Shown here in pieces: positions 1,948 to 20,768 of a stretch of 44,037 nt of DNA. Where the stretch lies: the NCBI GenBank assembly GCA_944359075.1, contig CALVSR010000003.1, positions 1-44,037 on the forward strand, written 5' to 3'. The notes under the pieces are model-generated. The model saw only the letters and a program-made list of their open reading frames with translations, made no database searches and was not told the origin of the DNA. A program made the translations under genes and the position numbers. The stretch comes from an uncultured Bacilli bacterium (lineage in GTDB: Bacteria > Bacillota_I > Bacilli_A > RF39 > UBA660). Numbering within the stretch: the stretch's first letter is position 1; each line of letters opens with the position of its first letter.

Positions 1948-1957
1948 AATGACAGAA

Positions 1958-2047
1958 TTCGCCAAATTGGCGATAAGACTCGCCAAATTGAGTGTGTTAT
2001 TTAGAATTTAGTTTTGTTATTCTCAAGATGTAAGGATGATCCTTACA
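1958..2047 (+). promoter_or_regulatory. Putative regulatory region of the toxin operon
   Basis: TCGCCAAATTG direct repeat at 1959-1969 and 1980-1990 (21-bp period); palindrome TCGCCA-AAT-TGGCGA; extended -10-like TGtTATTCT at 2015-2023; palindrome TGTAAGGA-TGA-TCCTTACA at 2029-2047. Confidence 0.45.
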
Positions 2048-2179
2048 AAAAATAGGAAAGGGGAGGAATGAGGATGACATAGCGCTCAAAGTACAAGCAA
2101 AGGGTTCATAAGAATAGAGATTGAATCACTGCGATATTAAGAAGTATAAAATAAATATTTAGAAAGAAGGGAAAACAAT

Positions 2180-2827
2180 ATGAATAATTATGATTATATA
2201 ATTAATTCTTTTACAAAAGAAGAAAATGACATTGATTTAGAAGTAGATAATTTAAATGTGGGATGTATCACATCAAAAAATAATAATTTTAATTTAGATA
2301 GTGAAGGAAACTTAACTGTAAAAAGTGTTACAGCACAACAAGGAACATTATCACAGGAAATTATTAGAAATTTAGTTTATCCAGTAGGTTCTATTTATAT
2401 GAATATTAATGCTACCAATCCAGCAACATTATTTGGTGGAACTTGGGAGCAATTACCAGACAGATTTTTATTAGGAGCTGGAAATAGTTATGCAGGAGGA
2501 AGCATTGGAGGAGAGGCAACACATACATTGACGGAAGCAGAAATACCATGGCATTATCATTCATTCAGCGGGACTACAGATGGCAATGGTAATCATTCTC
2601 ATACTGGTAATACATTAGAACTACGTCAAACTAGTTCATATAGCTATAGCAACGATGCTGCAAGGCCAATTACAAGTAGTGCTACTCATTATGGATTACA
2701 AATCACAAATGATGCAGGATGGCATCAACATACATATAGTGGAAATACAGTAGGCGCAGGAGGAAGTCAAGCTCACAATAATATGCCACCATACTTAGCA
2801 GTTTACATTTGGAAACGCACGGCTTAA
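2180..2827 (+). CDS. Phage baseplate/tail-fibre-tip-like protein (T4 gp10/gp12 C-terminal-like)
   Basis: YPVGSIYM...NPATLFGGTWEQL...GGEATHTLT...HxH repeats (HYH, HSH, HQH)...HNNMPPYLAVYIWKRTA are hallmark motifs of phage baseplate/tail-fibre collar and tip proteins. Confidence 0.8.
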   Translation: MNNYDYIINSFTKEENDIDLEVDNLNVGCITSKNNNFNLDSEGNLTVKSVTAQQGTLSQEIIRNLVYPVGSIYMNINATNPATLFGGTWEQLPDRFLLGAGNSYAGGSIGGEATHTLTEAEIPWHYHSFSGTTDGNGNHSHTGNTLELRQTSSYSYSNDAARPITSSATHYGLQITNDAGWHQHTYSGNTVGAGGSQAHNNMPPYLAVYIWKRTA

Positions 2828-2864
2828 GCTTACTCATAAAAACATAAAAAAGGAGAGTGAAACA

Positions 2865-5800: not shown

Positions 5801-8800
5801 TTTGAGTAATTCCACAAAAGTAAGTAAGAAAATACCGATTAATGGTATAGCTGGTGATTGCTATGATATATCGTTCTGGATTAAAAATGAGGGAATAGTA
5901 GCAAATAATGGAATTATAGTAAACTGTGTTAATATATCATATGAACCAGTGGATGAAAACATGGAACAATATTGGGTAGTTAGCAATCCATTTGTACCTA
6001 ATAAAAGATGGCAATTTATAAATTATAAAAGTATAGCTCCATATAATTATAAATCTATTACTATAAGTTTTGAACATAATAATGAATTTAATCAGATGTC
6101 TATTACTAATATATATTTCTATAAAGATTTAGACACTACATATTATGAATACGATACTTATGGTAATTTAGTTCGTACTACTAATATTGCAGATTACAAT
6201 AATACATTTTCATATGATAAAAATAACCAATTGATTTCCGCAACAACGCCTAGGGGAAAACATTTCAAATTTGAATATGATAATACAGCAACTGATCGTG
6301 TTCTTAATGCTATATCCTCTATGGGAATTTCTAATCAAGTTAAATATGATTCCTTTGGTAATCCTATTTTGACTAGAATTAGTAAGAAAGCAAATTCTAG
6401 TCCAACAAATCTTTATCCAGTGGTTGATTCCAATTCAACAACGAGTTCTAGTTTGACAGAAGGTACATATAGAATTAGAAGTAAAGGTACTGAAAAATAC
6501 TTTAAGGCTGAATATAGCAGTGTATTTTTGGAAAGTGATTCCTGTAGTAATACCTTATGGGATTTAGAAAAGGTTGGAGATAAATTTAAATTTATTTATT
6601 CTGTTATTCCTACATATTCATTAGAATATTTAGATGATATATTGTTTCTAAGTACTAGTAACAGCAATAATTTATTTATCTTAGAAGAAAATAAAAATGG
6701 TAGTTATCATATTAAATTAGCAACAGAAGATAAGTATATAAAGGCAGATACTTCTTCATTAGCAGCAGCTTCTCTAATAGATGATGATCCTACTTTTGAA
6801 TTTTATTTTGAAGTAATAGGAGAACAGTTTATAGAAAATAGTGCTACTTACAGTGAAGATGGTAGATTTGTTACTAGTGTTACAGATAGTCTATTAAATA
6901 CAACTTCCTATACAACTAACTCTACAACTGGATTAGTAACTTCTATGACAAATGCTAATAATCAAGCCACTAATTATACATATAATAGTAAAAATCAAAT
7001 TACATCCATTACTCAAGGGAATAAAACTATAAATTATACATATAATACACAAAATCTATTAAGTAAAATTTCCCAAGGAACCAAAGAATATAATTTTACT
7101 TATGATGACTTCTTGAATGCAAAGAAAGTAATGATTGGAGACAATATTACACTAATAACCAATGAGTATGAAGAAAACAATGGTAATCTATTAAAATCAA
7201 TCTATGGAAATAATCACGAAATCTCTTTTGATTATGATCAGTTTGACCGAGTTCAAACAATTCATAAAATGGATAAAGATTATCAATATTTATATGACAG
7301 TAATGGAAATTTAGCTGAAATTTTAACAAACAACATCATTTCTACTTTTGATGCTCCATCAACAGAATTAGAAAAATGGTATGATTCTATTATAAAATAT
7401 AATTATGATACTATTAAAAGAATAAAAGAATATGTTAATGATAATTTTAAAATCCATTATACATATGACAAAAATGATAATGTAACAAGTAAACAATATA
7501 AACTGGATACTACTACTCACAATTTAGTAAATACATATGACAAAGATGATAATTTAACAAAAACAGTAGTAGATAACCAAGAAGTAAATTATCAATACGA
7601 TGAATTGGGTAGATTAATCAGTAAAAATATCAATGATAATTATACTACAAATTATGATTATATTTCACTTGGAAAAAGAACATCAACTTTAGTAAATAGT
7701 ATTCAGAATGGAAATAATAGATATTCTTACCAATATGATAAATTAAATAATATTACTCATCTTTACTATAATGGTGAACTTCAAAAACAATACTATTATG
7801 ATGATTACAATGAACTAATAAAAGAAGAGGATTACAATACTAATCAAAAAATAGAGTATAATTATGACAATTTTGGTAATTTATTAACAAAAACTACCAC
7901 AGATATGACAACAAATGCTATAATAAAGACAGATACTTATCAGTATTCTAATAGTAATTGGGAAGACCAACTAACAAACTTTAATGGAAGTAGTATTACA
8001 TATGATGCCATTGGAAACCCATTAACGATTGGAAATAGTATCGAGATGACTTGGATCAATGGTAGAAGTTTAAGTACCTATGAAGATACTACCAAGAACT
8101 TGAATATCAGTTATGAGTACAATGTAGATGGTATTAGAACAGCAAAGATAGTAAATCAAGTAGAAACTAAGTATTACCTAGAAAATAGTAATATTATCTA
8201 TGAACAAAGAGGAAACAACTTAATCTATTATCTATATGATTTAACAGGGTTAATAGGGTTAAAATACAATGATAATACTTATTATTACATTAAGAATCTA
8301 CAAGGAGATATTATAGGAGTACTAGATTCTAATTACAATCAAGTAGTATCTTATGAATACGATAGTTGGGGTAAAGTATTAAGTATTAAAGATAATCAAG
8401 GTAATGAAATTACAGATACAACCAATATCGGTATCATCAATCCATTTAGATATAGAGAATACTATTATGATACAGAAACTAGCTTATATTACTTAAATAG
8501 TAGGTACTATAATCCTGAATGGGGTAGATTTTTGAATGCGGATGGTATTTTGGGTGCTAATATGGATATATTAGGGTATAATTTATATGCCTATGTTAAT
8601 AATAATCCAATTACCATGAGCGATTTAAGTGGTAATTTTGCAATTTCTGCTTCCTTCGCTATTGCAGGAATAGTTGCTACTGCGATCGTAGCAGCGGCGG
8701 CAGCAGCTGTACCATCGATAATGAGAGCTGCTGTTCAGGCAACTGCAGATATTATCCAGCAAGTACAAATTCATAATGCGGAAAAGAGTAAAAAGAATCA

Positions 8801-9149
8801 AAATAAACCAGAAAACAATAATCACAACGTATATGTTCTTAAAGATAAAACTACTGGAAATATAGAGTATGTTGGAAGAACTCAAGATATTGGTAAAACA
8901 ACAATTAGACATCATAATAATCCATTTAGAACTGATTTAAGAATAGACCCAATAGCAATAAACATTTCCAGTGATGAAGCTAGAGGATTGGAACAAATGC
9001 TGATTATAAATTGTAGAACACTTAATAGAAATTCAGACTTTCCAATGAACAATCAAATTAATGGAATCTCACTAAAAAATCCAAAATATGCATTATATTG
9101 GGATGCAGCATTAACTTGGGCTTCAGAAAATGAATTACCATGTAAGTAA
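2865..9149 (+). CDS. WapA-like Rhs/YD-repeat polymorphic toxin with GIY-YIG-like nuclease tip
   Basis: 2094 aa, SD AAGGAG and GTG start. DNRLRE-like domain (DTYI...NRALIKFNL), two CBM-like domains (NYLKNTSFE; NMVENSDFS), ricin-like insert, many YD repeats, and Rhs core (PFRYREYYYD...YYLNSRYYNPEWGRF...NLYAYVNNNP..DLSG). A hydrophobic helix precedes the tip VYVLKD...EYVGRT...R...EARGLEQ...NQIN. Confidence 0.92.
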   Translation: MKEIELIEKRKANEKHFLQEDGTITAKVYSSNIHYLKNGKYEDIDNTLIKKDDCYINKNNDYKVFFKEQGKDSLMRMERENNYLDIKLKQGNATKLKKHQKTSQYVEEVSYHNALNGIDIKYQTLPTKVKETIILNNNQTKTIKFIVDTNLSLELKDNTIIAKDQDENVFTIEKPYMEDSNGVINENISYQITNSDNLYEIELTLDSEWLDSEERLYPVYVDPTISDDKTASGIMDTYIYPNDTNTVRYNQPILKAGVERVNGENVINRALIKFNLPTIGTGSEVINATLTLCGYLMDDMTGTQQFGKTIAIHRVTVPWTEETANWENMNNNYDTRIDAVQFVNRSWLENGQIIPQYSSALYGDVTDLVKHWYKDTPNYGILIKSAKEEYIDDAYPAFYSKNHTIQNANPEPVLSISYRNQSGLESYYDYQSQQLTDGTISVNTYNGNLVGVFNLGKTIGSQLPAILNLIYNTNDVILKNNGFRFSLSQTLKEITIDNTQIYEYIDGDGTVHCFKDQTFRVLKPGVTPPTVEEILDENYNEDDYYETREYCADEDGLLLKLEQVDNKFIIKDKYDNKMTFSKNNTTDELYYLQELEDISNNKIQINYNQSNQLVKVIDSSNHEINIDYNTANVIKVSSPSSETTIGFSNNKINVITTNNGTTSLNYNEKDIISSIIDVNGTKIAYEYYDEIPYRIKKVIQYGLNDTLGQSLIFKYGFNETSITDNKNRTNTILFNSSGNKISSNTMDTEEDINNAYSTYDSIGENNSDRYYEKNKTLYSNCIVKYVKNYLKNTSFEADTNDYNISNIGGVETSYSTDCANSGTRSLKVATTNNYSTVTLASNMNILTGKYYTFSGYFKNEQKGKIIVSYTDKQDGKEYEFVEEFNESSQFERHDITFCINADEPEDVVLYVQLLGPGTCYIDDIQLEDGQVANNYNMVENSDFSEGLSDWSFTPIDSSKTDTYQLFTFNNNKSTALKIDLSNSTKVSKKIPINGIAGDCYDISFWIKNEGIVANNGIIVNCVNISYEPVDENMEQYWVVSNPFVPNKRWQFINYKSIAPYNYKSITISFEHNNEFNQMSITNIYFYKDLDTTYYEYDTYGNLVRTTNIADYNNTFSYDKNNQLISATTPRGKHFKFEYDNTATDRVLNAISSMGISNQVKYDSFGNPILTRISKKANSSPTNLYPVVDSNSTTSSSLTEGTYRIRSKGTEKYFKAEYSSVFLESDSCSNTLWDLEKVGDKFKFIYSVIPTYSLEYLDDILFLSTSNSNNLFILEENKNGSYHIKLATEDKYIKADTSSLAAASLIDDDPTFEFYFEVIGEQFIENSATYSEDGRFVTSVTDSLLNTTSYTTNSTTGLVTSMTNANNQATNYTYNSKNQITSITQGNKTINYTYNTQNLLSKISQGTKEYNFTYDDFLNAKKVMIGDNITLITNEYEENNGNLLKSIYGNNHEISFDYDQFDRVQTIHKMDKDYQYLYDSNGNLAEILTNNIISTFDAPSTELEKWYDSIIKYNYDTIKRIKEYVNDNFKIHYTYDKNDNVTSKQYKLDTTTHNLVNTYDKDDNLTKTVVDNQEVNYQYDELGRLISKNINDNYTTNYDYISLGKRTSTLVNSIQNGNNRYSYQYDKLNNITHLYYNGELQKQYYYDDYNELIKEEDYNTNQKIEYNYDNFGNLLTKTTTDMTTNAIIKTDTYQYSNSNWEDQLTNFNGSSITYDAIGNPLTIGNSIEMTWINGRSLSTYEDTTKNLNISYEYNVDGIRTAKIVNQVETKYYLENSNIIYEQRGNNLIYYLYDLTGLIGLKYNDNTYYYIKNLQGDIIGVLDSNYNQVVSYEYDSWGKVLSIKDNQGNEITDTTNIGIINPFRYREYYYDTETSLYYLNSRYYNPEWGRFLNADGILGANMDILGYNLYAYVNNNPITMSDLSGNFAISASFAIAGIVATAIVAAAAAAVPSIMRAAVQATADIIQQVQIHNAEKSKKNQNKPENNNHNVYVLKDKTTGNIEYVGRTQDIGKTTIRHHNNPFRTDLRIDPIAINISSDEARGLEQMLIINCRTLNRNSDFPMNNQINGISLKNPKYALYWDAALTWASENELPCK
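8128..8531 (+). repeat. Rhs core repeat copy 1 (404 bp, near-identical to 10141-10544)
   Basis: Manual alignment at offset 2013 shows 4 substitutions. Confidence 0.92.
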
Positions 9150-9161
9150 GGAGGAATGAAT

Positions 9162-10037
9162 ATGGGAGCTTGGGGAACAGGCTTATATCAAGATGATGTA
9201 ACATGCGATATTAAAGAAGAATATCTAAATAGACTAAGAATAGGATATACAAATATTGAAGCAACACAAGAAGTAATCGACCATAATATGGATTCTATTG
9301 AAGATGTAGAAGATGGACCACTTTTTTGGTTTGCTTTGGCAGATGTGCAATGGAAATATGGAAGGTTGCTGCCAGAAGTAAAAGAGGAAGCTTTAAAATA
9401 TATTCAAAGTGGCAATGATCTAGAAAGATGGAAAGAAAATAAAAAACAATATGAGAAAAGAAAACAAGTGTTAAAAGAACTTGAAGTAAGGCTTAATTCC
9501 CCTCAGCCACCAGAAAAAAAATTAACAAAGCTTACAATACATAAAGCAACATGGGAAGTTGGTGATGTTTTACTATATCAAATTCATAATGGTGGATTAA
9601 GAAATAATGAAATTGTACGAAACAGTAAGTGGTACAATAAATATGTATTATTACGAGTAGTTGGTATTACTAAGACTAATATTGGCAGTTTGCCTAGAAA
9701 GTATTCCCATGAACAGAATGTAGTAAAAATCTATAATTGGGTTGGTGAATCTGAACCAACTATAGAATTAATAAATAAACTGCAATTTATTATTGGAGAA
9801 AATTTATATAAACGGTTAGAGGAATCTAAATTTACATTAAGTTTTAGTAAAAAAGAACTAAAACAATTAAATTTTAAGACTATTCAAAAAGATCATAATT
9901 ATAAAGAAGTATCGGATCATATTATGAGTATAGTAGGTATACCGTGGGAAAACATTAATACAATTGATCTTGCTTTTATTCAAGCTTTAGATGCCGCAGA
10001 AGAAGAAGGAATTTTAATAGATGAAACTTGTGAGTAA
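9162..10037 (+). CDS. Putative cognate immunity protein (DUF4259-like N-terminus)
   Basis: Directly after the toxin stop with SD AAGGAGG. The MGAWGTGLYQDD N-terminus is typical of DUF4259-like genes found downstream of toxins. Confidence 0.7.
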   Translation: MGAWGTGLYQDDVTCDIKEEYLNRLRIGYTNIEATQEVIDHNMDSIEDVEDGPLFWFALADVQWKYGRLLPEVKEEALKYIQSGNDLERWKENKKQYEKRKQVLKELEVRLNSPQPPEKKLTKLTIHKATWEVGDVLLYQIHNGGLRNNEIVRNSKWYNKYVLLRVVGITKTNIGSLPRKYSHEQNVVKIYNWVGESEPTIELINKLQFIIGENLYKRLEESKFTLSFSKKELKQLNFKTIQKDHNYKEVSDHIMSIVGIPWENINTIDLAFIQALDAAEEEGILIDETCE

Positions 10038-10058
10038 GAGAAATATGAATAGTATGAG

Positions 10059-11194
10059 TTGAATTGGATCAATGGAAGAAGTTTATGTAGCTATAGTGAT
10101 TCTTCTAACGATTTAGATATCATTTATGAGTATGATGAAAATGGTATTAGAACAGCAAAGATAGTAAATCAAGTAGAAACTAAGTATTACCTAGAAAATA
10201 GTAATATTATCTATGAGCAAAGAGAAAACAACTTAATCTATTATCTATATGATTTAACAGGGTTAATAGGATTAAAATACAATGATAATACTTATTATTA
10301 CATTAAGAATCTACAAGGAGATATTATAGGAATACTAGATTCTAATTACAATCAAGTAGTATCTTATGAATACGATAGTTGGGGTAAAGTATTAAGTATT
10401 AAAGATAATCAAGGTAATGAAATTACAGATACAACCAATATCGGTATCATCAATCCATTTAGATATAGAGAATACTATTATGATACAGAAACTAGCTTAT
10501 ATTACTTAAATAGTAGGTACTATAATCCTGAATGGGGTAGATTTATTAATGCAGATAATTATATATCAACTGATACTGGATTACTGGGTTATAATATGTA
10601 TAATTACGCAAATAATAATCCTATAACTTTTGCGGATCCAATGGGTCATGCTGTTTTTATTGGATTATTAGTAGGAATTGTCGCAGCTGGAGCAGCGGGT
10701 ATAGCATATGGCATAAATAATAAGAAACAAAATCAAAAAGCTATCAAAGAAATTAATCAAGTTCAAAAAAAATATCCTAATTCTGTTCCAAATCCGTCTA
10801 AATCAGTTCAATTTCAGGAAACACTAAAAACTAATGCATCTATTGTGAAATCTGAAACTAAAAATATGAATCAGTTCCAAAAATTAGATTACTTTATTAA
10901 TAATGTTAAAACTGGTGGAAAATATGATTTGAAGAATACCGAGGAATGGAAAAACACTGATATATATTATGATGGGTGATTATGGAACCTCAAGATATTG
11001 GAAACTATCACTTTGGTTATATTGGCAGAGCAATGGGTTATGATACTGAATTCTTAACTTCTGGAGCTGGTGCTTATCAATTATATAGTGGAACAGCTAA
11101 AATATCTTGGTGTTTTACAACTAATAATTGTGATGATCCAAGAGATAATTATTATATTAGATTGGGCGCAATTGCATATGATAAAAATAATTAA
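10059..11194 (+). pseudogene. Orphan Rhs core plus C-terminal toxin (Ntox44-like RNase), split by a 1-bp frameshift
   Basis: ORFs 10059-10979 and 10976-11194 join if GATGGGTGATT (~10971-10981) had one more G. Motifs: DPMG cleavage site, TM helix, VKTGGKYDLK...DIGNYHFGYIG...GAG...DDPRD (Ntox44). No SD before 10059. Confidence 0.8.
10141..10544 (+). repeat. Rhs core repeat copy 2
   Basis: Near-identical to 8128-8531. Confidence 0.92.
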
Positions 11195-11233
11195 ATTAGT
11201 TTTGAGTAAAAATTATTTGGACGGTGATTGTAA

Positions 11234-11821
11234 GTGACAAAAAAAATGCTCTTTTTTGGATTATTTCTTTTCACACTATGTTTATTATGTAATTGGTATA
11301 GTGATTTAATTGTCGGATATTTCACGATATTTACTTTACTTTTTATTAAACTTTTTTTACTAATTATATGGATTATATTTCTAGTTAAAATAATTAAAAG
11401 TTTTGATAAAAATAAGAATAAAATTAATATTTTATTTGGAATTTTACTAATAGGTTCTATTTTTTCATTGTTTTTTGACTTTAGATTTATTAAAACTAAA
11501 GTTGAATTTACACTATATAAAAAACAGAGAAATATAATAATAGAAAAAGTTAAGAATAATGAATTTACTTATTATTTTGATAAAAATATAAAATTACCAA
11601 TATATAAATATGTTTCTTCTGATGGTGAGATTTATGTATATAGAAATGATGAAGAACAAATAATTGGCTTTTGGATATTTAGAGGAATTTCAAGTGGGAA
11701 TGTTGAGTTAATCTATTCTTCTGATGGGGAAGATTTAATATACGATATTAAGAATAATTCAGAAATCGTTAAGATTATTGAGTTAGAAGAAAATTGGTAT
11801 TATGTAGAAAGCAACTACTAA
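11234..11821 (+). CDS. Putative membrane immunity protein of the orphan cassette
   Basis: 195 aa with about 3 N-terminal TM helices; lies directly downstream of the orphan toxin tip. Confidence 0.65.
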   Translation: MTKKMLFFGLFLFTLCLLCNWYSDLIVGYFTIFTLLFIKLFLLIIWIIFLVKIIKSFDKNKNKINILFGILLIGSIFSLFFDFRFIKTKVEFTLYKKQRNIIIEKVKNNEFTYYFDKNIKLPIYKYVSSDGEIYVYRNDEEQIIGFWIFRGISSGNVELIYSSDGEDLIYDIKNNSEIVKIIELEENWYYVESNY

Positions 11822-11840
11822 TGAAAAAATAATATAATAT

Positions 11841-12035
11841 TTGGAAGTATGGAATGATAAAAATACAACAAAGGAATTTACCCTTTTCGGTCACAATTTA
11901 ATAAAAGACAATGAAAATTCAAGTTTAGTATCTGGAATTGAATCGTCAAAAAACTCTAAATTCATTGGAATAAGCTTTGAAGGATTTATTGGTTTTGGAG
12001 GAAGAATAAAAATTGGATTTAATATTGGAGGTTAA
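11841..12035 (+). pseudogene. Probable C-terminal remnant of another toxin tip
   Basis: No SD. Gly-rich end (GISFEGFIGFGGRIKIGFN) resembles Rhs C-termini, and its 3' end supplies the SD GGAGG for the next gene. Confidence 0.45.
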
Positions 12036-12043
12036 GATTTATT

Positions 12044-12421
12044 ATGGGTGTAAAAATCAGAAGATTAATAGCAATATATATAGATTGTAATATCATATTT
12101 TGGGTAAGTTATTATTTTTGTGTATTTTGGTCACTATTTAGTAAAAATATTTTCTTTCTTTTTTTCTTTCGTTAGTGGGATTATTAGTATTTATAAATGT
12201 ATTTTTAAGAAAAGATATAATATTTGGTTATGAAAGTATTGGTAAAAAATTAATGCGATTAAAAATTTACGATAAAAATAACGAAAGACTAACAAATAAG
12301 AAACAACTTATTGATCGAACCTTTCATTCCCTTTGGACTTTTCATATATATATTTTTATGATTTTAATAAATAAATAACAAAAGTACTGGAGATAAAAAA
12401 ATTGGTACAACAGTAAAATAA
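12044..12421 (+). pseudogene. RDD-family membrane protein with two frameshifts
   Basis: ATG 12044 gives MGVKIRRLIAIYID, then a shift in the T tract at ~12159-12165. It continues as ...DIIFGYESIGKKLMRLKI..., shifts again in the AAAT repeats at ~12370, and ends NNKSTGDKKIGTTVK*. RR..A..ID, SIGKK and GD...GT.V are RDD motifs. Confidence 0.7.
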
Positions 12422-12500
12422 AATTTATTAATATTAGATATTAAATTAAATATATAAATATAAAAAAATATGAATATGCCTATGTATGGGAGGATTTAAA

Positions 12501-13283
12501 ATGATTATAAATAAAAACATAGAGAATGATGCTTATCTAAAACTAGTTCATTATGCTTTTCAAAAATGTGATAGTATTTTTCTTATAAAAAGAAATGACC
12601 AGCATAAGTCAAGTACAAATAAAATCATGGGAATTATTATGCAAACTAATCAATATACAGAAAATGATATTGTAAATATGTATACAGTAAATTCTAAAAA
12701 GTTTTTAGAGGAGATGGTTGGTCAGTTTATAGATAATGATACTATTTTTGAAGAAGATGAATGGAAAGAGAACTTGGTAAAATTAGGAGCAGATAGTAAA
12801 CAAATTGAAAAGTGTAAAATCGATAATAGCTTTCATATGATAGAGGATAGCATTATGCAATTTGTATACGAGCACCTAACTTACTCATGGATTAGTAAAC
12901 ATCGAAATAGTATTATTTCTGAAAAAAATAGATATTTACCATTAAAGTATATATCTAATAAAGCTATGTATGATGAGCAGTTTCTTTATACCACTACATA
13001 TTATATTAGATTAACTAATGAAATAAAAGCAGAACTAATTAATAAAAATTCGATTTATGATTGGTGTTTTCCAATGGCTCTTGAAGATTTATGTTTTTTT
13101 AAAGACGGTTATTGTTGGTTATATTCTGTCGCACATGAAGAAATTTTAGATATTTATTGTGAAAATGAAGAAGAATATAATTACTTGAAATCAATCGGAG
13201 TCGAATTTGTAGAAGATCATTTTATACCTATTTCAGAGAAAGAGAAGGAAGCTTTATACAATAAAAACTTTAATAATAATTAA
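12501..13283 (+). CDS. Putative immunity protein, paralog A (EDLCFFKDGYCWLYSVAHE family)
   Basis: SD GGAGG then ATG 12501; the N-terminus aligns with the 16328 and 17296 paralogs; located in the toxin array. Confidence 0.7.
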   Translation: MIINKNIENDAYLKLVHYAFQKCDSIFLIKRNDQHKSSTNKIMGIIMQTNQYTENDIVNMYTVNSKKFLEEMVGQFIDNDTIFEEDEWKENLVKLGADSKQIEKCKIDNSFHMIEDSIMQFVYEHLTYSWISKHRNSIISEKNRYLPLKYISNKAMYDEQFLYTTTYYIRLTNEIKAELINKNSIYDWCFPMALEDLCFFKDGYCWLYSVAHEEILDIYCENEEEYNYLKSIGVEFVEDHFIPISEKEKEALYNKNFNNN

Positions 13284-13474
13284 TCGTACATTTATTATGA
13301 ATACAATGTAGATAGTATTAGAATAGCAAAGATAGTAAATGGATTAAAAACCAAGTATTACCTAGAAAATAGTAATATTATCTTTGAGCAAAGAGGAAAC
13401 AACTTAATCTATTATCTATATGATTTAACAGGATTAATAGGATTAAAATACAACGATGATACTTATTATCACAT
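13083..13474 (+). repeat. ~390-bp direct repeat, left copy (3' end of immunity gene plus Rhs core fragment)
   Basis: Matches 16880-17271 (offset 3797) with the first ~215 bp identical; 13295-13474 also matches Rhs 8111-8290. Confidence 0.9.
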
Positions 13475-13536
13475 AGAATTTATTAAACTATTTTACTAGT
13501 TATGATTGAATACACTAATTATAAAAAGGTGAAAAA

Positions 13537-13992
13537 ATAATAGGCGTTAGATTCAAAATAGAAAATGAATATGATAATATTTTTTATAAAATATTTAAAA
13601 ACATAGATTTTCATGAATACGATTGAAACATTGTTGAGGATGAGATTTATTCTCAGACAGGAAAAAATTATTTTGACAAAGCTCATTATTTAAATGATGA
13701 GTTTCAGAAGTTAATAGAATATGGAATATATTACCCAGTGTTTGCTAATATACAAATGTATAGAAAACAAGATGAAGTAGAAGATATTGAAACTTATTCA
13801 GATTTTATTAATAGTAAATGTCAGCTTGTCTTATTTATTACAGATAATGAATTTGTTGATATTTATTCTAAGAATGAAAATTGGTTAAATACTATTTACC
13901 AAAATGCTATAGATAATAACTTTGAAAACCTTCAATATATTGAAAATAATAATTCTTATATACATCATAGATTTTCTGCATACTCAGACTAA
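13537..13992 (+). pseudogene. DUF2691-like putative immunity protein with nonsense codon and lost start
   Basis: In frame upstream of ORF 13738: IGVRFKIENEY...FHEYD*(TGA 13624)NIVEDE...YYPVFANIQMY...IETYSDFINSKCQLVLFITD. SD AAGGTGA is followed by ATA rather than ATG. Confidence 0.65.
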
Positions 13993-14065
13993 GTAAAATT
14001 GATATCAATAAATTATGACATAGATCATTTAGGTGGGCAAAATATATTTTAATTAAATTAATAAT

Positions 14066-14100
14066 AAAAGGCTCTATCTATATATAGGATTGAGTCTTTT
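14066..14100 (+). terminator. Putative terminator upstream of the holin
   Basis: AAAAGGCTC...GAGTCTTTT hairpin. Confidence 0.45.
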
Positions 14101-14126
14101 GCCTATTAGTGAAAGGAGAAATGAAC

Positions 14127-14486
14127 ATGGAAGAGTTTATAGAACATATTATGGCAATGAATGAGCCAAAATTATTATTTATATTATGTGGAATATTTAT
14201 ATTTACAGATGTTCTAACAGGATATTTAAAGGCATTTAAAACAAAAAAAATTAATTCATCTATTAGTAGAGATGGTTATTTAAAGAAAGTATCTTGGCTA
14301 ATAGCATTAATTTTTGGATTTGTAATTGATTATTTAGTAGGTACACAATTATTTTTAATTGGAACAGCAGTAGTATGTGTGATAACAGAGGGAATATCCG
14401 TTTATGAAAATCTTGGCGAATTAGGAGTTAGCTTACCATTTACAAAGTACTTTGAAAAAGTAAAAGATAATAGTGAGATTATATAG
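14127..14486 (+). CDS. Phage holin family 4 (TcdE/Cp-1-type) holin
   Basis: DVLTG..KA....INSSISRDG..KK and EGISVYENLG.LG motifs, 3 TM helices; SD AAGGAG 8 nt before ATG 14127. Confidence 0.88.
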   Translation: MEEFIEHIMAMNEPKLLFILCGIFIFTDVLTGYLKAFKTKKINSSISRDGYLKKVSWLIALIFGFVIDYLVGTQLFLIGTAVVCVITEGISVYENLGELGVSLPFTKYFEKVKDNSEII

Positions 14487-14501
14487 AAGGGAATATAGAG
14501 T

Positions 14502-15374
14502 GTGAATTATTTTACATTTGGGATGAAAGTGTTAAGAGTAACGCAAAACTATAATGGATCTACTTCGCATAAAGCACACTGGTATCACTCTACTAACTAT
14601 GCAGATTATCCAATTGACTGTGCTGGAAAAGATGGTGACAAAGATATTTACTATGCACCAGTAGATATGAAAGTAACGGCTGTAAAAGGAATAGGTAATG
14701 CTACTACTAATACTATTTGGTTAGTAGCATGTGAAAAATGTATGACCCCAAGCGGAGAAATATTACCTTTTATTATGCTAACTCATTTTAATGATAATGA
14801 TCCCTATGTATCTAATTTGAAAGTAGGTTCTATTGTGAAACAGGGACAACCTATTTGTGAAGAAGGAACAGATGGTGCTACTGCGAATCATTTACACATC
14901 GTAGTAGGAAATGCAGATAGAGGTTGTGGAAATGGTTTCATTCAAAACTCTAATGGTAAGTGGGTTAGTAATGGTTACTGTATGAAACCAGAAGAAATTA
15001 TGTATATAGATAAAGACTTCACAAATGTACTTGATACCAATGGTATTATTTTTAAAGATAAGCCCAAAGAAGAACCAAAAGAAAGTTTTTTTGGATCAAA
15101 AGGGTACTTTTGTTTAGGAAATTATCATGAAAATATTGGAAAAATTTGCGATTTCTTTGCTGAATATTTTTATGGATACTTTTATAAAGGAGAAAATGCT
15201 AAAGCAAAGGCTCATCAAGTCTTAGACGGAAATTATTTTGGACCTTATTTAAAAAAATGGACAATAGAGTTTCAAAAACGTGCTAAAGATGAAGGAAAAT
15301 ACAATGATGAAATAGATGGATGCATTGGCCCTAAAACCCTAACTGCCTTAAAATATTATGGATTTCAAGAATAG
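14502..15374 (+). CDS. Endolysin-like peptidoglycan hydrolase: M23-type peptidase plus C-terminal PG-binding domain
   Basis: H...PID..G.DG, YAP, KVG..VKQGQ.I..EG.DG...NHLH (M23 Zn motif); C-terminal DG.YFGP......EFQK...DGCIGPKT (PG_binding_1-like); no signal peptide. Confidence 0.85.
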   Translation: MNYFTFGMKVLRVTQNYNGSTSHKAHWYHSTNYADYPIDCAGKDGDKDIYYAPVDMKVTAVKGIGNATTNTIWLVACEKCMTPSGEILPFIMLTHFNDNDPYVSNLKVGSIVKQGQPICEEGTDGATANHLHIVVGNADRGCGNGFIQNSNGKWVSNGYCMKPEEIMYIDKDFTNVLDTNGIIFKDKPKEEPKESFFGSKGYFCLGNYHENIGKICDFFAEYFYGYFYKGENAKAKAHQVLDGNYFGPYLKKWTIEFQKRAKDEGKYNDEIDGCIGPKTLTALKYYGFQE

Positions 15375-15384
15375 TAAGATAATA

Positions 15385-15416
15385 AAGAGGAAATTTCAAT
15401 ATAAATTCCTCTTTTA
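15385..15416 (+). terminator. Rho-independent terminator after the endolysin
   Basis: AAAGAGGAA...TTCCTCTTTT hairpin. Confidence 0.6.
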
Positions 15417-15436
15417 TAATGTTAATATATATTTTA

Positions 15437-15809
15437 AGTAAAAAATATTAATGATAATAAACTATAATACAATTAAGATATTTCTGGTAATTTATTAACA
15501 AAAACTACCACAGATATGACAACCAATGTTATAATAAAGACAGATACTTATCAGTATTCTAATAGTAATTATGAAGACCAACTAACAAACTTTAATGAAA
15601 GTAGTATTACCTATGACAGCATCGGAAACCCATTAACAATTGGAAATAGTATCGAAATAGCCTGAATCAATGGTAGAAGCTTAAGTATCTATGAAGATGC
15701 TACCAAGAATTTAAATAATCATAGGAATACTAGATTCTAGTTACAATCAAGTAATATCTTATGAATACGATAGCTGGAGCCAAGTATTAAGTATTAAAGA
15801 TAATCAAGG
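15437..15809 (+). pseudogene. Internally deleted, degenerate Rhs fragment
   Basis: 15485-~15717 matches 7874-~8106; 15721-15809 matches 8313-8401; 15437-15484 loosely matches ~7620-7667; TGG>TGA at 15663. Confidence 0.85.
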
Positions 15810-15818
15810 AGGTTTATT

Positions 15819-16223
15819 ATGTATAGTATTGATGATATTATGGATATGCTTGATTGGAATAGGAGCATAGAAGATCAAGAAAAAGGTATAGAATTAGCAA
15901 GATCTATTAAAAGTATTAATGTTTTTATACAACCACTTGATCCAAACCACAATAAAAATGTATGGGAAAATTGTGCAAAGATTTTATTTGAGAGAAGTGA
16001 TGAAGAATTAAAACCATATTTAATTTCATTGTTTGAGTGGTTACAAGATTTAACTTGTCCTGGCGCTATGATTATTTTTGATAGATTAAAAAGTTATAAA
16101 GATAAGACAAATTTCGATTTTTCTTATAAAGTATGCTTAAGTGAAGCAAAAAAGTTAGGCGATGAGGCATGGAAAGATAATATAATCGAACTTGGCAAAT
16201 CTATAAATAAGGAGATATCGTAG
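15819..16223 (+). CDS. DUF5071-like putative immunity protein
   Basis: WENCAKIL...LKPYL..LFEWLQDL..PGA motif; SD AAGGAGG. Confidence 0.7.
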   Translation: MYSIDDIMDMLDWNRSIEDQEKGIELARSIKSINVFIQPLDPNHNKNVWENCAKILFERSDEELKPYLISLFEWLQDLTCPGAMIIFDRLKSYKDKTNFDFSYKVCLSEAKKLGDEAWKDNIIELGKSINKEIS

Positions 16224-16309
16224 GAATATTAGATTCTAGTTACAATCCACATTATCACCCAGGGAAAAGACCTAATCATTCACATATTTGGTTTTTTCCA
16301 TCCCCATAA
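16209..16309 (+). pseudogene. Rhs core fragment fused in frame to the last 20 codons of a deleted toxin tip
   Basis: 16209-16247 matches 8302-8340; the frame reads GDIVGILDSSYN-PHYHPGKRPNHSHIWFFPSP*. Confidence 0.6.
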
Positions 16310-16327
16310 GGAAAGGAAGATTAGAAA

Positions 16328-17080
16328 ATGGTTATAGATAAAAATATAGAGAAAGATACATATTGGAAATTAGTCGATTATGCTTTTCAAAAGTGTGATA
16401 CTATTTCTCTTACTAAGCAAAATGATCAACATGAATCAGAACATAAAAAAATTATGGATATTATTATGTCAATGAATAGTTATTCAGCAACCGATATTTT
16501 AAATAATTATTCTGAAAAATTTCTAGAAGATATGGTTCTTCAATTTAAAGATAATGATATTATTTTTGATGAGGAAAATTGGAAAAAGTATGTTAAAAGC
16601 TTGGGAATGAGTGATGAAAGTATTGAAGAATTAAAAAAAAGTAATAGATATCATACGATAACTGGAAGTATTATGAGGTTTGTTTATAAAAAACTTACAG
16701 AATCATGGATCAATAGAAATAGAAATAGTATTATTACAGTCACTAATCATTATATAACTGAATTATCTGGCAAAAAATTTTTATATAATCATATATATTA
16801 CATAAAAATGACAAAGGAAATACAGGAAGAAATGCTAAAAAAGCAATCATTATTTGATTGGATTTTTCCTACATCACTAGAAGATTTATGTTTTTTTAAA
16901 GACGGTTATTGTTGGTTATATTCTGTCGCACATGAAGAAATTTTAGATATTTATTGTGAAAATGAAGAAGAATATAATTACTTGAAATCAATCGGAGTCG
17001 AATTTGTAGAAGATCATTTTATACCTATTTCAGAGAAAGAGAAGGAAGCTTTATACAATAAAAACTTTAATAATAATTAA
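16328..17080 (+). CDS. Putative immunity protein, paralog B
   Basis: Homologous throughout to 12501-13283, with the C-terminal ~67 aa identical. Confidence 0.72.
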   Translation: MVIDKNIEKDTYWKLVDYAFQKCDTISLTKQNDQHESEHKKIMDIIMSMNSYSATDILNNYSEKFLEDMVLQFKDNDIIFDEENWKKYVKSLGMSDESIEELKKSNRYHTITGSIMRFVYKKLTESWINRNRNSIITVTNHYITELSGKKFLYNHIYYIKMTKEIQEEMLKKQSLFDWIFPTSLEDLCFFKDGYCWLYSVAHEEILDIYCENEEEYNYLKSIGVEFVEDHFIPISEKEKEALYNKNFNNN

Positions 17081-17296
17081 TCGTACATTTATTATTAATA
17101 CAATGTAGATGGTATTAGAATAGCAAAGATAGTAAATCAAGTAGAAACTAAGTATTACCTAGAAAATAGTAATATTATCTATGAGCAAAGAGGAAACGAC
17201 TTAATCTATTATCTATATGATTTAACAGGATTAATAGGGTTAAAATACAATGATAATACTTATTATTACATTAAGAATCTACAAGGAGATATTATA
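16880..17296 (+). repeat. ~390-bp direct repeat, right copy, extended by Rhs core fragment
   Basis: 16880-17271 matches 13083-13474; 17092-17296 matches Rhs 8111-8315. Confidence 0.9.
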
Positions 17297-17862
17297 TGTT
17301 AATTAAAGGAAAAATAGAAAATGAAAAATATGAAAGACTAATAAAATATGCTTTTCAAAAATCTGATGCAATTATGTTTGTCTTTAGAAAAGATGGCTTT
17401 AGTAATCAGCAAATTTTGAAATTAGAGAAAACATCTAATGACTTAAAAACAAAATTTAAAGATTATATTTTAAAAATTAGAAATGGTTCTTATTGGGTAT
17501 TTACAAAAGTTGGATATTCACAATTAGGTATTTCTAGTTCTGAATTTAAAGATCCATCTAATTTTGATAAATTATTTGAAGTGTTATTTTATAAAACTAC
17601 TAAAGAATTAGAAGAATATGTACTATCAAATTCTAATTTATATTCATGGCTTAATCCAGACTATCCTGAAGATATATCATTTTTTAAAAACGGCTATTGT
17701 TGGCTATATTCTGTAGCGCATGAAGAAATGTGTGACATATATTGTGAAAATGAGGAAGAATACAACTATTTAAAATCTATAGGAATTGAGTTTATGGATG
17801 ATAAGTTTATAGAAATTTTAAATAATGAATTATATTTTGAAAATTATGATAATATACTATAG
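17296..17862 (+). CDS. Putative immunity protein, paralog C
   Basis: YAFQKSD and EDISFFKNGYCWLYSVAHEE..DIYCENEEEYNYLKSIG motifs are shared with paralogs A and B. Confidence 0.72.
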   Translation: MLIKGKIENEKYERLIKYAFQKSDAIMFVFRKDGFSNQQILKLEKTSNDLKTKFKDYILKIRNGSYWVFTKVGYSQLGISSSEFKDPSNFDKLFEVLFYKTTKELEEYVLSNSNLYSWLNPDYPEDISFFKNGYCWLYSVAHEEMCDIYCENEEEYNYLKSIGIEFMDDKFIEILNNELYFENYDNIL

Positions 17863-17920
17863 ACCGATTATAGAATTAATAATCCTATTACAGTAAATTA
17901 CATTATTTTGCTAAAAAATA

Positions 17921-17950
17921 AAAATCCACTAGCTAAACTAGTGGGTTCTT
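17921..17950. terminator. Bidirectional terminator marking the end of the island
   Basis: CCACTAG-ctaaa-CTAGTGG hairpin between convergent genes. Confidence 0.55.
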
Positions 17951-17968
17951 ATTTATGAATACATACCA

Positions 17969-18061
17969 TTAAATAAACCAAACCATAATACCTGCTATAA
18001 AAGAACCAAGCATGATTAAAGTTAAAAATATAGCCATTCCTTTTAACATTTTTTTATTCAT
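17969..18061 (-). CDS. 30-aa single-TM small protein (Prli42/DUF4044-like)
   Basis: MNKKMLKGMAIFLTLIMLGSFIAGIMVWFI*, SD GAGGTG; absent from the ORF track. Confidence 0.65.
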   Translation of the reverse strand: MNKKMLKGMAIFLTLIMLGSFIAGIMVWFI

Positions 18062-18159
18062 GATAACACCTCATTAACATTATAATAAAAAACAATAAAA
18101 AAGTAAAATATTTAAACATATTTTATCAAAAACTTAATATGATTTATTAGGTGAACAAA

Positions 18160-18777
18160 ATGAATAAAATAATAGTCAAAGCAAAGAAAAGCATTACGAA
18201 TCAAAAAAAGAAATATCTATTTTTAACTACCATTATTTCGATTGGAATCCTAAGTGGTATTCTATTTATCTTTTTTATCTCTAAGGAGGACAAGTCATTA
18301 GTAAAAACAGAATTAACTACTTTTTTTACTTATATTCAAACCAATGATATTCATTATCTAACAGCATTTACGAATAGTCTATTTTCTAATCTTACTTACT
18401 TAGTAATAATCTGGATATTAGGTATTTCGATTGCTGGAATTCCTATTATTATTTTTCTATTATTTTTTAAAGGATTTATTTTTGGATTTAGTTTTTCAGC
18501 AGTAATTGCAAATTATGGAGTAAAAGGAATTTTATTATCTATGGCTTATCAATTACCACATGCCTTGTTCTTATTGATTATTTTTTTATTAATTGGTTTT
18601 TATGCCATCAATTTTTCTATTCGTTTATTTAGAAACTTATTTTTAAAAGAACAAATCAATCTAGGACCTTATTTTAAAAGATATAATCAAATAGCTATTA
18701 TTAGCATTATAGGTATTTTGATTTGTTCCTTATTAGAAACCTTTTTATCACCGGTTTTCATGAACTTTTTCTTGTAA
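18160..18777 (+). CDS. spoIIM: Stage II sporulation protein M family membrane protein
   Basis: IWILGISIAGIPII..LLFFKGFIFGFS, LPH and LET..SP motifs; about 5 TM helices. Confidence 0.8.
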   Translation: MNKIIVKAKKSITNQKKKYLFLTTIISIGILSGILFIFFISKEDKSLVKTELTTFFTYIQTNDIHYLTAFTNSLFSNLTYLVIIWILGISIAGIPIIIFLLFFKGFIFGFSFSAVIANYGVKGILLSMAYQLPHALFLLIIFLLIGFYAINFSIRLFRNLFLKEQINLGPYFKRYNQIAIISIIGILICSLLETFLSPVFMNFFL

Positions 18778-18800
18778 AGAAATATAGAAAAAAGTATAAT
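18772..18800 (+). promoter_or_regulatory. SigA promoter of mnmA
   Basis: TTGTAA-N17-TATAAT. Confidence 0.6.
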
Positions 18801-18821
18801 ATGATATAGCAGGTGAAGTTT

Positions 18822-19928
18822 ATGAAAAGAGTAGTAATTGGAATGAGTGGAGGAGTGGATAGTAGCGTCAGTGCTATTTTATTAAAGCAACAAGGATATG
18901 AAGTAGTCGGTTTATTTATGAGAAATTGGGATACTTCTGTAAATGGTGATATTTTAGGAAATCCGAATTTGGATCATAATATTTGTCCTCAAGAGCAGGA
19001 TTACAATGATGCTTTAGCTGTATGTAATAAGATTGGTATTCCTCTACATAGAGTTGATTTTGTGAAAGAATATTGGGATAATGTATTTGAATATTTTTTA
19101 AGTGAATTAAAAGAAGGTAGAACACCAAATCCAGATGTTATGTGCAATAAATATATTAAATTCGATTATTTTATTAGAGAAGCTCAAAAATTAGGAGCAG
19201 ATTATATTGCTACAGGTCATTATGCAAGAATTCAAGATGGACAATTATTAAGAGCGATAGATTCTAATAAAGACCAAACTTATTTTTTATCACAGCTATC
19301 TAAAAAGCAGTTAGAAAATGTTTTATTTCCAATCGGAGATTTAGAAAAGAAAGAAGTAAGAAAAATAGCTGAAGAATATGATTTAGTTACTGCTTCTAAA
19401 AAAGACTCTACAGGAATTTGTTTTATTGGGGAAAGAAACTTTAAAAATTTCTTAAAAAATTACTTACCCAATCAACCTGGAAAAGTTATTAATATTGAAA
19501 CCAATGAAGTGGTTGGAGAGCATATTGGACTAATGTATTATACGATAGGGCAGAGAAGGGGACTAGATATAGGAGGAACCGATAGTAGAATGTTTGTAGT
19601 TGGAAAAAACTTAGAAAAAAACATTCTATACATCGCTTTAGGAGAAGATAATGAGTATCTATACTCTGATAGTTGTATAATCGATACCATAAATTTTAAT
19701 ACTTCAGAACGTCCAACGCAATGTAGCGCTAAATTTAGATATCGTGCTCCTGATTATCCAGTAACTCTAGAGTATATAAATGATCATCAGATTTTAGTAA
19801 AGTATGATCGAATAAAAGCGGTTACCCCCGGACAAGCTTGCGTATTTTATGATGGAGAAAAATGTCTCGGTGGAGGAATTATCAAAACAGTATGTAAAAA
19901 CAATGAAAAACTTTGGTATATATTGTAA
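18822..19928 (+). CDS. mnmA: tRNA-specific 2-thiouridylase MnmA
   Basis: SGGVDS, TPNPDVMCN, ATGHYA, KDSTGICFIG and TPGQ motifs. Confidence 0.97.
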   Translation: MKRVVIGMSGGVDSSVSAILLKQQGYEVVGLFMRNWDTSVNGDILGNPNLDHNICPQEQDYNDALAVCNKIGIPLHRVDFVKEYWDNVFEYFLSELKEGRTPNPDVMCNKYIKFDYFIREAQKLGADYIATGHYARIQDGQLLRAIDSNKDQTYFLSQLSKKQLENVLFPIGDLEKKEVRKIAEEYDLVTASKKDSTGICFIGERNFKNFLKNYLPNQPGKVINIETNEVVGEHIGLMYYTIGQRRGLDIGGTDSRMFVVGKNLEKNILYIALGEDNEYLYSDSCIIDTINFNTSERPTQCSAKFRYRAPDYPVTLEYINDHQILVKYDRIKAVTPGQACVFYDGEKCLGGGIIKTVCKNNEKLWYIL

Positions 19929-19997
19929 AATAAATGTCAACTTTACTACTTGTATTTTTAAGTGAATGTGATAGAATGATATTAGGAGGTCATAGAT

Positions 19998-20768
19998 ATG
20001 CAGGATCTAAAAAAATTATTTTCAGAGCTTGGAATCTCAAAAGTTAGATTAGCTAAATATCTAGGAGTTTCTAGACAAATGCTTTATAACTATTTAGCTG
20101 AAGAAAAATTAGAAAATTGGCCAAAAGAAAAGGTAATGAAGATTCTATGTTTGCTAGGAATCAAAGATGTAAAAGATCTAGATAACATTAAAATAGATGG
20201 AGAATACATTATTCAAGTGGAGAACCGCTTGAATGATGGCGTAAAAGAAGATAACGGTAATTTTTATGGAACTGTGGAATTAAAAGGATTAAACAAAAAA
20301 GAACAAGAACTGTTATCGGATATTTTCCAATTATTAAAAGATAAAATGATTGAAGACAAAACAAAAGACGCTTATTATAGTTGCCGCTACTTATATTATT
20401 TTCTACAATCGATGGGTACTACAAAAGAATTGAAATATATCTTAGCTTATATTGCGAAGTCTATGGGATTTATCGATCATACGGAATATGCATTTAATGA
20501 GGAAAAGCAATTTATATTTGAAAGTATTATGTTTTCTGCTATGACATTATATAATAATGGAGGAGCTTCTAGAAGTAAAATAGCTGAAACGCATAAGCGA
20601 TTTGTACAAAAAATAGAACATGAAAAAGAAGAGGTTCTTAGTAGAACGCAAGAGTTAAATACAGCAAAAGTACAAGCCTTAAAAGAACTTGGTTATACCG
20701 AGATTAATAATGAAAATGCCAAAGAAATATTAGATAAAATAGCTGAAATTCAATCTAGAAAAGTATAG
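19998..20768 (+). CDS. N-terminal HTH domain protein of unknown function
   Basis: ISKVRLAKYLGVSRQMLYNY HTH; SD AGGAGG; TTGTAT...TGaTAGAAT promoter upstream. Confidence 0.7.
   Translation: MQDLKKLFSELGISKVRLAKYLGVSRQMLYNYLAEEKLENWPKEKVMKILCLLGIKDVKDLDNIKIDGEYIIQVENRLNDGVKEDNGNFYGTVELKGLNKKEQELLSDIFQLLKDKMIEDKTKDAYYSCRYLYYFLQSMGTTKELKYILAYIAKSMGFIDHTEYAFNEEKQFIFESIMFSAMTLYNNGGASRSKIAETHKRFVQKIEHEKEEVLSRTQELNTAKVQALKELGYTEINNENAKEILDKIAEIQSRKV

Follow-up and report, generated by a model that had tools for sequence, protein, structure and literature searches.

The stretch of DNA considered here, referred to below as the window, comprises 44,037 nucleotides (nt) from an uncultured Bacilli bacterium (GenBank assembly GCA_944359075.1, contig CALVSR010000003.1, positions 1 to 44,037 of the forward strand) and contains a large Rhs toxin gene followed by a series of immunity-type genes, between which fragments of the Rhs core sequence are interspersed. 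The series is probably an Rhs orphan toxin/immunity array in decay; its present form would be due to homologous recombination among the core fragments and to a few illegitimate joins that would have removed toxin coding sequence. At two of the joins a core fragment runs directly into the start region of an immunity-type gene. Overall the locus is of an ordinary kind, an Rhs orphan array of an uncultured gut Firmicute in an advanced state of erosion, with one neat, thinly sampled detail.

The window is contig C3 of an assembly of 1.34 Mb with 28% GC and 92% completeness, and the sequencing runs holding the stretch were mostly recorded as chicken gut metagenomes (20 runs, none of them listed as RNA). 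Core fragments were located by BLASTN of the main gene (2865-9149) against the window, and domains were sought by scanning the open reading frames (ORFs) of the window with Pfam and NCBIfam/TIGR profiles. Core matches at E<=1e-8 were obtained in 12 of 28 other species genomes of the genus, and junctions were compared in 13 loci from 11 related genomes and 2 metagenome loci (L048, L049); genomes, loci and runs are designated by G, L and X numbers. The names imm1, imm2 and imm3 denote paralogues within the array, and imm0 the gene after the main toxin.

The main gene encodes both a large YD/RHS-repeat protein and a Rhs-associated core domain, the combination by which a Rhs/YD polymorphic toxin locus is recognized: the profile TIGR03696 (Rhs_assc_core) matched amino acids 1832-1923 (about 8358-8633, E=1e-18), and the YD repeat profile TIGR01643 was matched as well. 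The conserved core of the gene ends near 8614 (NNNPITMSDLSG) and is followed by the C-terminal toxin region at 8616-9146. The tetranucleotide AAGG occurs only twice in the 767 nt of core between 7848 and 8614, at 8302 and 8398, and junctions at 8300/1, 8294-8302, 8310 and 8314/5 lie around the first of these sites. The features on which the argument depends are as follows, core segments being given with the corresponding positions in the main gene.

2865-9149, plus strand: main Rhs/YD-repeat toxin gene (ORF of 2094 amino acids; Pfam RHS_repeat, E=7e-21)
8302-8307, plus strand: AAGGAG in the core, in the Q-G-D codons; by motif inventory the sole AAGGAG within 7848-8614
8397-8401, plus strand: CAAGG in the core, in the N-Q-G codons; second of the two AAGG sites and breakpoint of the DUF5071 fusion
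12486-13283, plus strand: imm1, paralogue of imm2 and imm3 (sequence comparison)
13284-13294, plus strand: 11-nt linker TCGTACATTTA from the imm1 stop to the core segment, with an identical copy at 17081-17091
13295-13482, plus strand: core segment b' (8111-8300, 90.5% identity, BLASTN), second copy of the segment b region
13483-13992, plus strand: DUF2691 immunity-type pseudogene (Pfam DUF2691 on 13738-13992)
15459-15717, plus strand: core segment a (7848-8106, 88.8%, BLASTN)
15718-15809, plus strand: core segment c (8310-8401, 91.3%, BLASTN)
15806-15812, plus strand: predicted hybrid SD sequence AAGGAGG, AAGG from the core and AGG from the immunity side (from the sequence)
15819-16223, plus strand: DUF5071 gene, 3'-truncated, 134 amino acids (Pfam profile positions 12-78 of 119 only)
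16209-16247, plus strand: core segment c' (8302-8340, start possibly 8294, 87.2%, BLASTN)
16247-16309, plus strand: in-frame tail of a deleted toxin, 20 codons (PHYHPGKRPNHSHIWFFPSP and stop), matching toxin C-termini 5' of imm2 homologues in G026 and G008
16328-17080, plus strand: imm2, intact, with its own ribosome-binding site (RBS) (ORF and sequence comparison)
17092-17296, plus strand: core segment b (8111-8315, 97.1% to the main gene, BLASTN), giving the predicted SD sequence and spacer of imm3
17296-17862, plus strand: imm3, intact, 188 amino acids, its start aligned with the starts of the G026 and G008 homologues

At imm3 the core sequence CAAGGAGATATTATA occupies 17282-17296, and its final A, aligned with 8315, is the A of the start codon; AAGGAG (17283-17288), the 7-nt spacer and the ATG at 17296 are all core-derived. 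At the DUF5071 gene the core CAAGG (15805-15809) runs into AGG and yields AAGGAGG, which is followed by a 6-nt spacer and the ATG at 15819. Both direct core-to-immunity-start fusions fall on the only two AAGG sites of the core, and because the joins landed on these sites the core would supply all of the predicted Shine-Dalgarno (SD) sequence of imm3 and half of that of DUF5071. At the other end of the DUF5071 ORF the last four codons and the stop (AAG GAG ATA TCG TAG) are core-derived too, in another reading frame. These three arrangements had been described in the first-pass annotation of this DNA and were confirmed, as were its assignments of the fragment at 17092 to segment b and of the fragment at 16209 to a beginning at 8302 (possibly 8294); the remnant upstream, reported there as lacking a piece of core, indeed lacks 8107-8309, and its start was corrected by BLASTN from 15485 to 15459.

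The native RBS of the imm3 homologue in G026 (AAGGTGAAATTGTA) was found to be identical with core positions 8302-8315 at 11 of 14 nucleotides, a level reached by 0.03% of random 14-mers of the window and by none of 40 regions upstream of ORFs. Measured from the first base of AGG, the start codon lies 12 nt away in the window; the corresponding spacing is 11 nt in G008 and 13 nt in G026. Since the native RBS matches the core to this extent, an SD-guided origin of the imm3 join is plausible, and the join was probably guided by the similarity. The same arrangement would also result if selection had favoured joins that left the immunity gene translatable, and SD-mediated joining is plausible for one or two events.

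The right-hand junctions of the degraded fragments share one outcome: all four drop toxin coding sequence and keep the start of the next immunity-type gene. They join 8300/1 to the DUF2691 region, a few nt from where the lost toxin had its stop codon, 8401 to DUF5071, 8340 to the toxin tail and imm2, and 8314/5 to imm3. The toxin-tail junction shares ATC (5/7) with the native toxin sequence. The proposal that toxins are excised while a translatable immunity gene is left behind therefore holds for the position of all four joins, but of the four genes kept one is dead and one truncated: against the intact copies in G011, G023, G001, G026 and G002, the start codon of DUF2691 is changed from ATG to ATA and its reading frame is broken by a TGA, and DUF5071 lacks its 3' part. 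The accompanying proposal, that the joins are set by microhomology of SD-like core sequence to the RBS in front of the immunity gene, agrees with the two SD fusions and with the 11/14 similarity at imm3; it is not supported at 8300/1 and 8340, where the SD motif was not used (any bases shared by the two ends at 8300/1 being uncertain), or at the internal 8106|8310 junction, where microhomology does not exceed 1 nt and the SD plays no part.

No family match was obtained for imm1, imm2 or imm3 in the Pfam and NCBIfam scans, and from their position they are taken as putative immunity genes. The assignment follows from the fact that in G026 and G008 the homologues of imm2 and imm3 are preceded by an orphan Rhs toxin, which stops 8-10 nt before their start and has a C-terminus (…PHYHP…HIWYY) matching the tail at 16247-16309. 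With the G026 toxin as query, no toxin cognate to the tail was found in the 92%-complete genome, the sole match (E=0.0017) being the linker of the main protein. A scan for promoters gave 48 sites against 50.7 expected and was uninformative; the best plus-strand match near imm3 (TTAACA-18 nt-TACAAT, 10/12) lies at 17222-17251, within segment b and about 45 nt 5' of the start.

The recurrence of breakpoints in the core, on which the first-pass annotation had laid weight, does not withstand a comparison of the junctions by descent. The stretches 12489-13482 and 16315-17281 are 78% identical over 1004 nt and represent one duplicated unit, in which an immunity gene is followed by the linker and then by core from 8111. 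Over their last 216 nt, linker included, imm1 and imm2 are 99.1% identical, whereas the 5' parts are 68.4% identical, a contrast suggestive of recent conversion or crossover over this patch. A different organism is represented by metagenome locus L049, where the linker and the first ~35 nt of segment b stand behind an imm2 homologue, with a score reached by 0 of 500 shuffles; two further copies keep the linker and TTATTAATA but gain no significance from the rest, their scores being reached in 185 and 35 of 500 shuffles. The two 8111 boundaries are thus one old cassette edge, inherited with imm2-type genes and copied behind imm1, and they do not count as two independent breakpoints.

The junction at 8300/1 is likewise shared by descent, in this case with G011, whose main gene is 98.6% identical to that of the window. 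In G011 core 8028-8300 is joined to the same downstream DNA (97.9% over 2083 nt), and the fragment shares a 2-nt deletion and substitutions with 13341-13482. Segment b' is accordingly a mosaic, its left 46 nt resembling 17092-17137 (95.7%) and the rest being G011-like, including the right junction. Segments c and c' (16209-16247) share the derived bases C8312, A8319 and G8332 and may descend from one short-core cassette.

In the related loci the junctions are dispersed. Independent right junctions were found at 7940 (G026), 7952 and 8194 (G013), 7975 (G002), 8141 (G010) and 8340 (G016), and further ones at 8433 and 8470 (both shared by G001 and G023), ~8456 (L048) and ~8372 (L049), the last two at protein-level resolution; the one at 7940 is an internal deletion with CTTAT microhomology. 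None of these 10 junctions, which spread over 7940-8470, falls at 8294-8322 or 8397-8401, and the ORFs that follow them in G001, G023 and G016 keep their own RBS 53-105 nt downstream. The enrichment at the QGDII and DNQG codons that the first-pass annotation had expected among homologous islands was thus not observed, and its alternative of a sequence-specific hotspot is contradicted as a general explanation. On the left side at most one of about 12 boundaries in the relatives lies near the QGDII codons; the short-core fragments of G001 and G023 begin near 8295-8308, with uncertain boundaries. The left boundary of segment a behind the M23 gene is common to G013, where the core continues unbroken to 8194.

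Canonical orphans in the relatives have a uniform left edge. All seven examined (in G026, G002, G003 and G008) have their start at 7865-7879, each preceded by a common terminator hairpin (AAGTGCTTCGGCACTTTTT-like) with a ~25-nt spacer; in the orientation of the loci the starts lie at 3041, 4666 and 7005 (L036), 8324 (L039), 686 and 2476 (L037) and 6589 (L038). This boundary is again one inherited, conserved cassette edge.

The contigs of other samples show rearranged versions of the array. A contig of run X2 joins 13311 back to 10141 through 19 shared letters, as is expected when two core fragments give rise to a tandem duplication or an excised circle. A contig of run X6 carries another module order (end of b and imm3, 144 nt, 11165-11815, a further 1004 nt, holin), and in another X6 contig the core is joined to the toxin tail at ~8397 instead of 8340. 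Recombination between core fragments therefore seems to be ongoing. Several junctions of the window recur in such contigs: those labelled f, g and h in X5 and X2, i in X5 and X6, and c in X7, while the linker|8111 junction is spanned by contigs of X2 and X5. A metagenome scan with an alignment of the imm family gave 38 loci, all of them at most 49% identical to imm3, and no strain of the same species.

The observations are accommodated by a model in which each core fragment would be the left arm of a former orphan cassette and three processes would have acted. Cassette boundaries would have been inherited, the imm2-type stop with the 11-nt linker and core from 8111 travelling with the immunity gene, and a recent conversion patch would have copied the linker|8111 junction behind imm1. 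Homologous recombination between core fragments would have shuffled, duplicated and deleted modules, giving mosaic fragments. Finally, a few illegitimate joins would have removed toxin coding sequence and spared the next immunity gene, and two of these landed on the only AAGG sites in the core.

A further feature of the fragments is the complementary gap. Between the end of segment a (8106) and the start of b (8111), TCAG (4 nt) is lost, while b ends at 8315 and c starts at 8310. On uniform placement, the probability that another fragment matches both ends of the 8107-8309 gap within 5 nt is ~0.0016. We tentatively read the gap as an insertion of the block 15718-17091 (segment c, the DUF5071 remnant, c', the toxin tail, imm2 and the linker) at the left edge of segment b, the target being a once-contiguous fragment a+b|imm3. 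Homology in b, a constant companion of imm2 and the linker, would have anchored one end of the block and the other would have joined illegitimately 4 nt from the anchor. Insertion is favoured because the M23-linked fragment of G013 is unbroken across 8106-8111, because segments a and c carry markers of different lineages, and because orphan 1, an upstream module described below, shows a diverged left (76.6%) and a main-like right part, as a+b would. A multi-step template switch, or a coincidence in a locally favoured region, is a possible other reading. Neither the metagenome scan nor the contigs of other samples yielded a donor or recipient strain for the insertion.

Three other explanations of the gap were set aside. 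Excision of segment b from the remnant at 15459-15809 and its pasting downstream is disfavoured by the identity to the main gene, which is 97% for b and 89-91% for a and c. The short repeats TTAT..GAGTAC (8111-8120 and 8311-8322) lie outside the 23 ungapped core repeats scoring >=8, and the overlap at 8106|8310 is at most 1 nt. An X6 contig joining 15717 to 17092 with TCAG between them, considered as a progenitor, has main-like bases and double depth, as expected of a paralogous core copy, and was uninformative.

Several points weigh against the model of recombination and illegitimate joins. Four endpoints within 17 nt are more clustering than an unbiased process predicts (p=0.009 if independent), and the complementarity at both ends is incompletely explained; as the TTAT..GAGTAC repeats are not among the 23 best direct repeats, they leave this coincidence unexplained. 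For the insertion it must still be assumed that the block happened to begin (8310) at about the place where segment b ends (8315), and the former contiguity of b (97% to the main gene) and a (89%) requires mosaicism or later conversion. No native partner sequence was found for the DUF5071 junctions, the search of 200 other genomes of the same taxonomic order giving a single DUF5071 match of 45% identity, and among the contig matches listed for other samples none spans 15717|15718.

The clustering bears equally on the other explanations of the joins. If 10 independent endpoints are scattered uniformly over 7848-8614, a group of four within 17 nt has p=0.009; with the endpoints of c and c' merged (3 of 9) it becomes p=0.11-0.16. 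A recombinase or nuclease site at the QGDII codons is most improbable: the four window endpoints within 8298-8315 and the uncertain beginnings of the G001 and G023 fragments speak for it, but the relatives have neither right nor, with at most one exception, left boundaries there although the motif is conserved, the partners at the junctions have no common sequence, the endpoints are scattered over 17-22 nt and not at one phosphodiester bond, and no recombinase domain was found among the 18 ORFs scanned within 1089-20768, where only sub-threshold helix-turn-helix matches on 19998-20768 were obtained. A further idea is that a conserved in-frame SD-like landing pad (AAGGAG with an AT-rich spacer, Q-G-D-I-I) is similar enough to the RBS of immunity genes to guide illegitimate joins both ways, so that loss of a toxin would by preference leave an orphan immunity gene ready for translation and cassette boundaries would accumulate at the pad. 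It is judged very unlikely; if true, the pad would be a sequence-encoded bias in the decay of polymorphic toxin loci into immunity islands.

A systematic SD-microhomology rule, by which the core would act as a built-in landing site and the loss of a toxin would yield a translatable orphan immunity gene, is considered unlikely. In its favour are the coincidence of both core-to-ATG fusions with the two AAGG sites of the 767-nt stretch, the resemblance of the core motif to the native imm3 RBS at a level rare (0.03%) among random 14-mers, the beginning of c' exactly at AAGGAG and the conservation of the motif (of 14 core copies aligned from the genus, 9 have it intact and 5 altered). It is supported by two events only, however; the junctions in relatives do not use the motif and leave the RBS of the immunity genes in place downstream, three junctions of the window have no SD homology, and selection for translatability yields the same pattern with no mutational bias. 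Chance and survivorship alone, that is, random illegitimate joins seen where immunity genes remained expressible, the complementarity being coincidental, is in our view likewise unlikely. The loss of significance on merging endpoints and the dispersed positions in relatives agree with it, and by our own estimate a data set of ~30 junctions should contain a few that coincide to within a few nt; against it stand the complementarity at both ends, the improbability that the 11/14 RBS similarity is irrelevant, and the two spared genes of four that are not intact, which means that survivorship by function is incomplete. The mixture of inherited boundaries, core recombination and few illegitimate joins is the account that we regard as probable.

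The remaining features of the array are the following.

9156-10037, plus strand: imm0, putative cognate immunity gene of the main toxin by position, with no Pfam or NCBIfam match
10048-11194, plus strand: orphan 1, canonical, core 8034-8614 followed by an Ntox44 toxin (BLASTN and Pfam)
14109-14486, plus strand: holin (Pfam Phage_holin_4_1)
14502-15374, plus strand: M23-like peptidase (Pfam)
17923-17947, plus strand: terminator-like hairpin closing the array (from the sequence)

Homologues of imm0 are placed after a related toxin in G002 and G003. The core of orphan 1 (10048-10627) matches 8034-8614 at 90.6% and had not been used in the first-pass annotation; relative to the main gene it is a mosaic, identity rising at 8127 from 76.6% on the left to 93.2% on the right. 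In orphan 1, and likewise in G026, G003, G008 and G002, core homology ends at the boundary between core and toxin, beyond which another toxin and immunity gene follow. Orphan 1 is interrupted by a frameshift into the ORFs 10059-10979 and 10976-11194, Ntox44 being located in the second, a separate ORF of 72 amino acids, and small ORFs lie between orphan 1 and imm1. At the N-terminus of the main Rhs protein no signal peptide was evident by eye, and the gene immediately 5' of the main gene (2180-2827) encodes a phage baseplate Gp10 C-terminal domain (E=2e-21).

The DUF2691 gene (…FSAYGD and stop) abuts a short core fragment from ~8326-8337 in G026 and G002 (L036 8640-8670, L039 6540-6575); these two genomes share the DUF2691|core junction, and the toxins downstream differ. 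The holin and M23 cassette within the array is found at this place also in G011, G013, G010 and G003 and in metagenome locus L048, and it may provide a holin/peptidoglycan-hydrolase release route for the Rhs toxin. A possible DUF5071 remnant 5' of the G001/G023 fragment was rejected, no significant similarity being found. G011 (L035), the closest relative, is devoid of the whole 2.57-kb block from segment a to imm3 (window 15378-17945), its M23 gene being followed by ~34 nt and then by sequence matching 17946 onward.

Orphan immunity genes protect against the toxins of neighbours, and the origin of toxin-less immunity islands has mostly been inferred. At the present locus the junctions left by four toxin removals are resolved to the base, core fragments are seen to survive between immunity genes as portable homology, and there are two concrete cases in which leftover coding sequence became a predicted ribosome-binding site. 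If SD-guided joining were general, it would constitute a simple sequence rule for arsenals turning into shields; at present it is an anecdote of one or two events. A literature search yielded no report of a core remnant supplying the SD sequence of an orphan immunity gene and no microhomology analysis of Rhs orphan-immunity junctions, supplements not being covered.

Rhs orphan rhs-CT/rhsI modules are a subject for which the work of Jackson in 2009 is reportedly cited. Orphan Rhs and contact-dependent growth inhibition (CDI) modules, recombination in the core, pseudogenised immunity genes and arrays built by displacement have all been described already. According to the available parts of the reports, Rhs orphan modules are formed by displacement of the C-terminus (Koskiniemi 2014, PMC3967940; Steele 2017, PMC5727410). 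The window resembles these modules in that its large main gene precedes a row of shortened core fragments accompanied by toxin and immunity genes, in the use of core homology as a substrate for recombination with the main gene and in the presence of orphaned immunity genes and pseudogenised toxins. Unlike what is described in the same parts of those papers, the orphans of the window are mostly toxin-free, with 39-350 nt of core left, two core remnants are fused to an immunity start and supply predicted SD sequence, and the host is a small-genome gut Firmicute of 28% GC.

The orphan cdiA-CT/cdiI modules of CDI systems (Poole 2011, PMC3150448) offer a closer parallel to the fusions, as far as the accessible text of that paper extends. 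There too toxin fragments lack initiation signals while the immunity genes have a start codon and a properly spaced SD sequence, and the extent of retained upstream homology is variable; the differences are that the SD sequence is that of the immunity gene itself and that the toxin fragments are retained and not excised.

The immunity gene arrays of the type VI secretion system of Vibrio cholerae are reported to arise by sequential displacement of effectors, and homology-facilitated illegitimate recombination is discussed as a route to effector/immunity arrays (Kirchberger 2017, PMC5361080). To judge from the sections of that report at hand, old immunity genes are kept there as well while effectors are replaced and leave remnants, through homologous recombination that has no fixed breakpoints; toxin class and secretion system are different, and in those sections no claim is made of a ribosome-binding site supplied by a remnant. 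In type VII secretion system loci of Firmicutes, homologous recombination takes place between tandem immunity paralogues (Garrett 2022, PMC9484751, from the portion available). The tandem, non-identical paralogues imm1, imm2 and imm3 appear to have been reshaped by recombination in the same manner, as in the 99.1% patch at the 3' ends of imm1 and imm2, whereas in the window the recombining homology also includes the Rhs core fragments that lie between the immunity genes.

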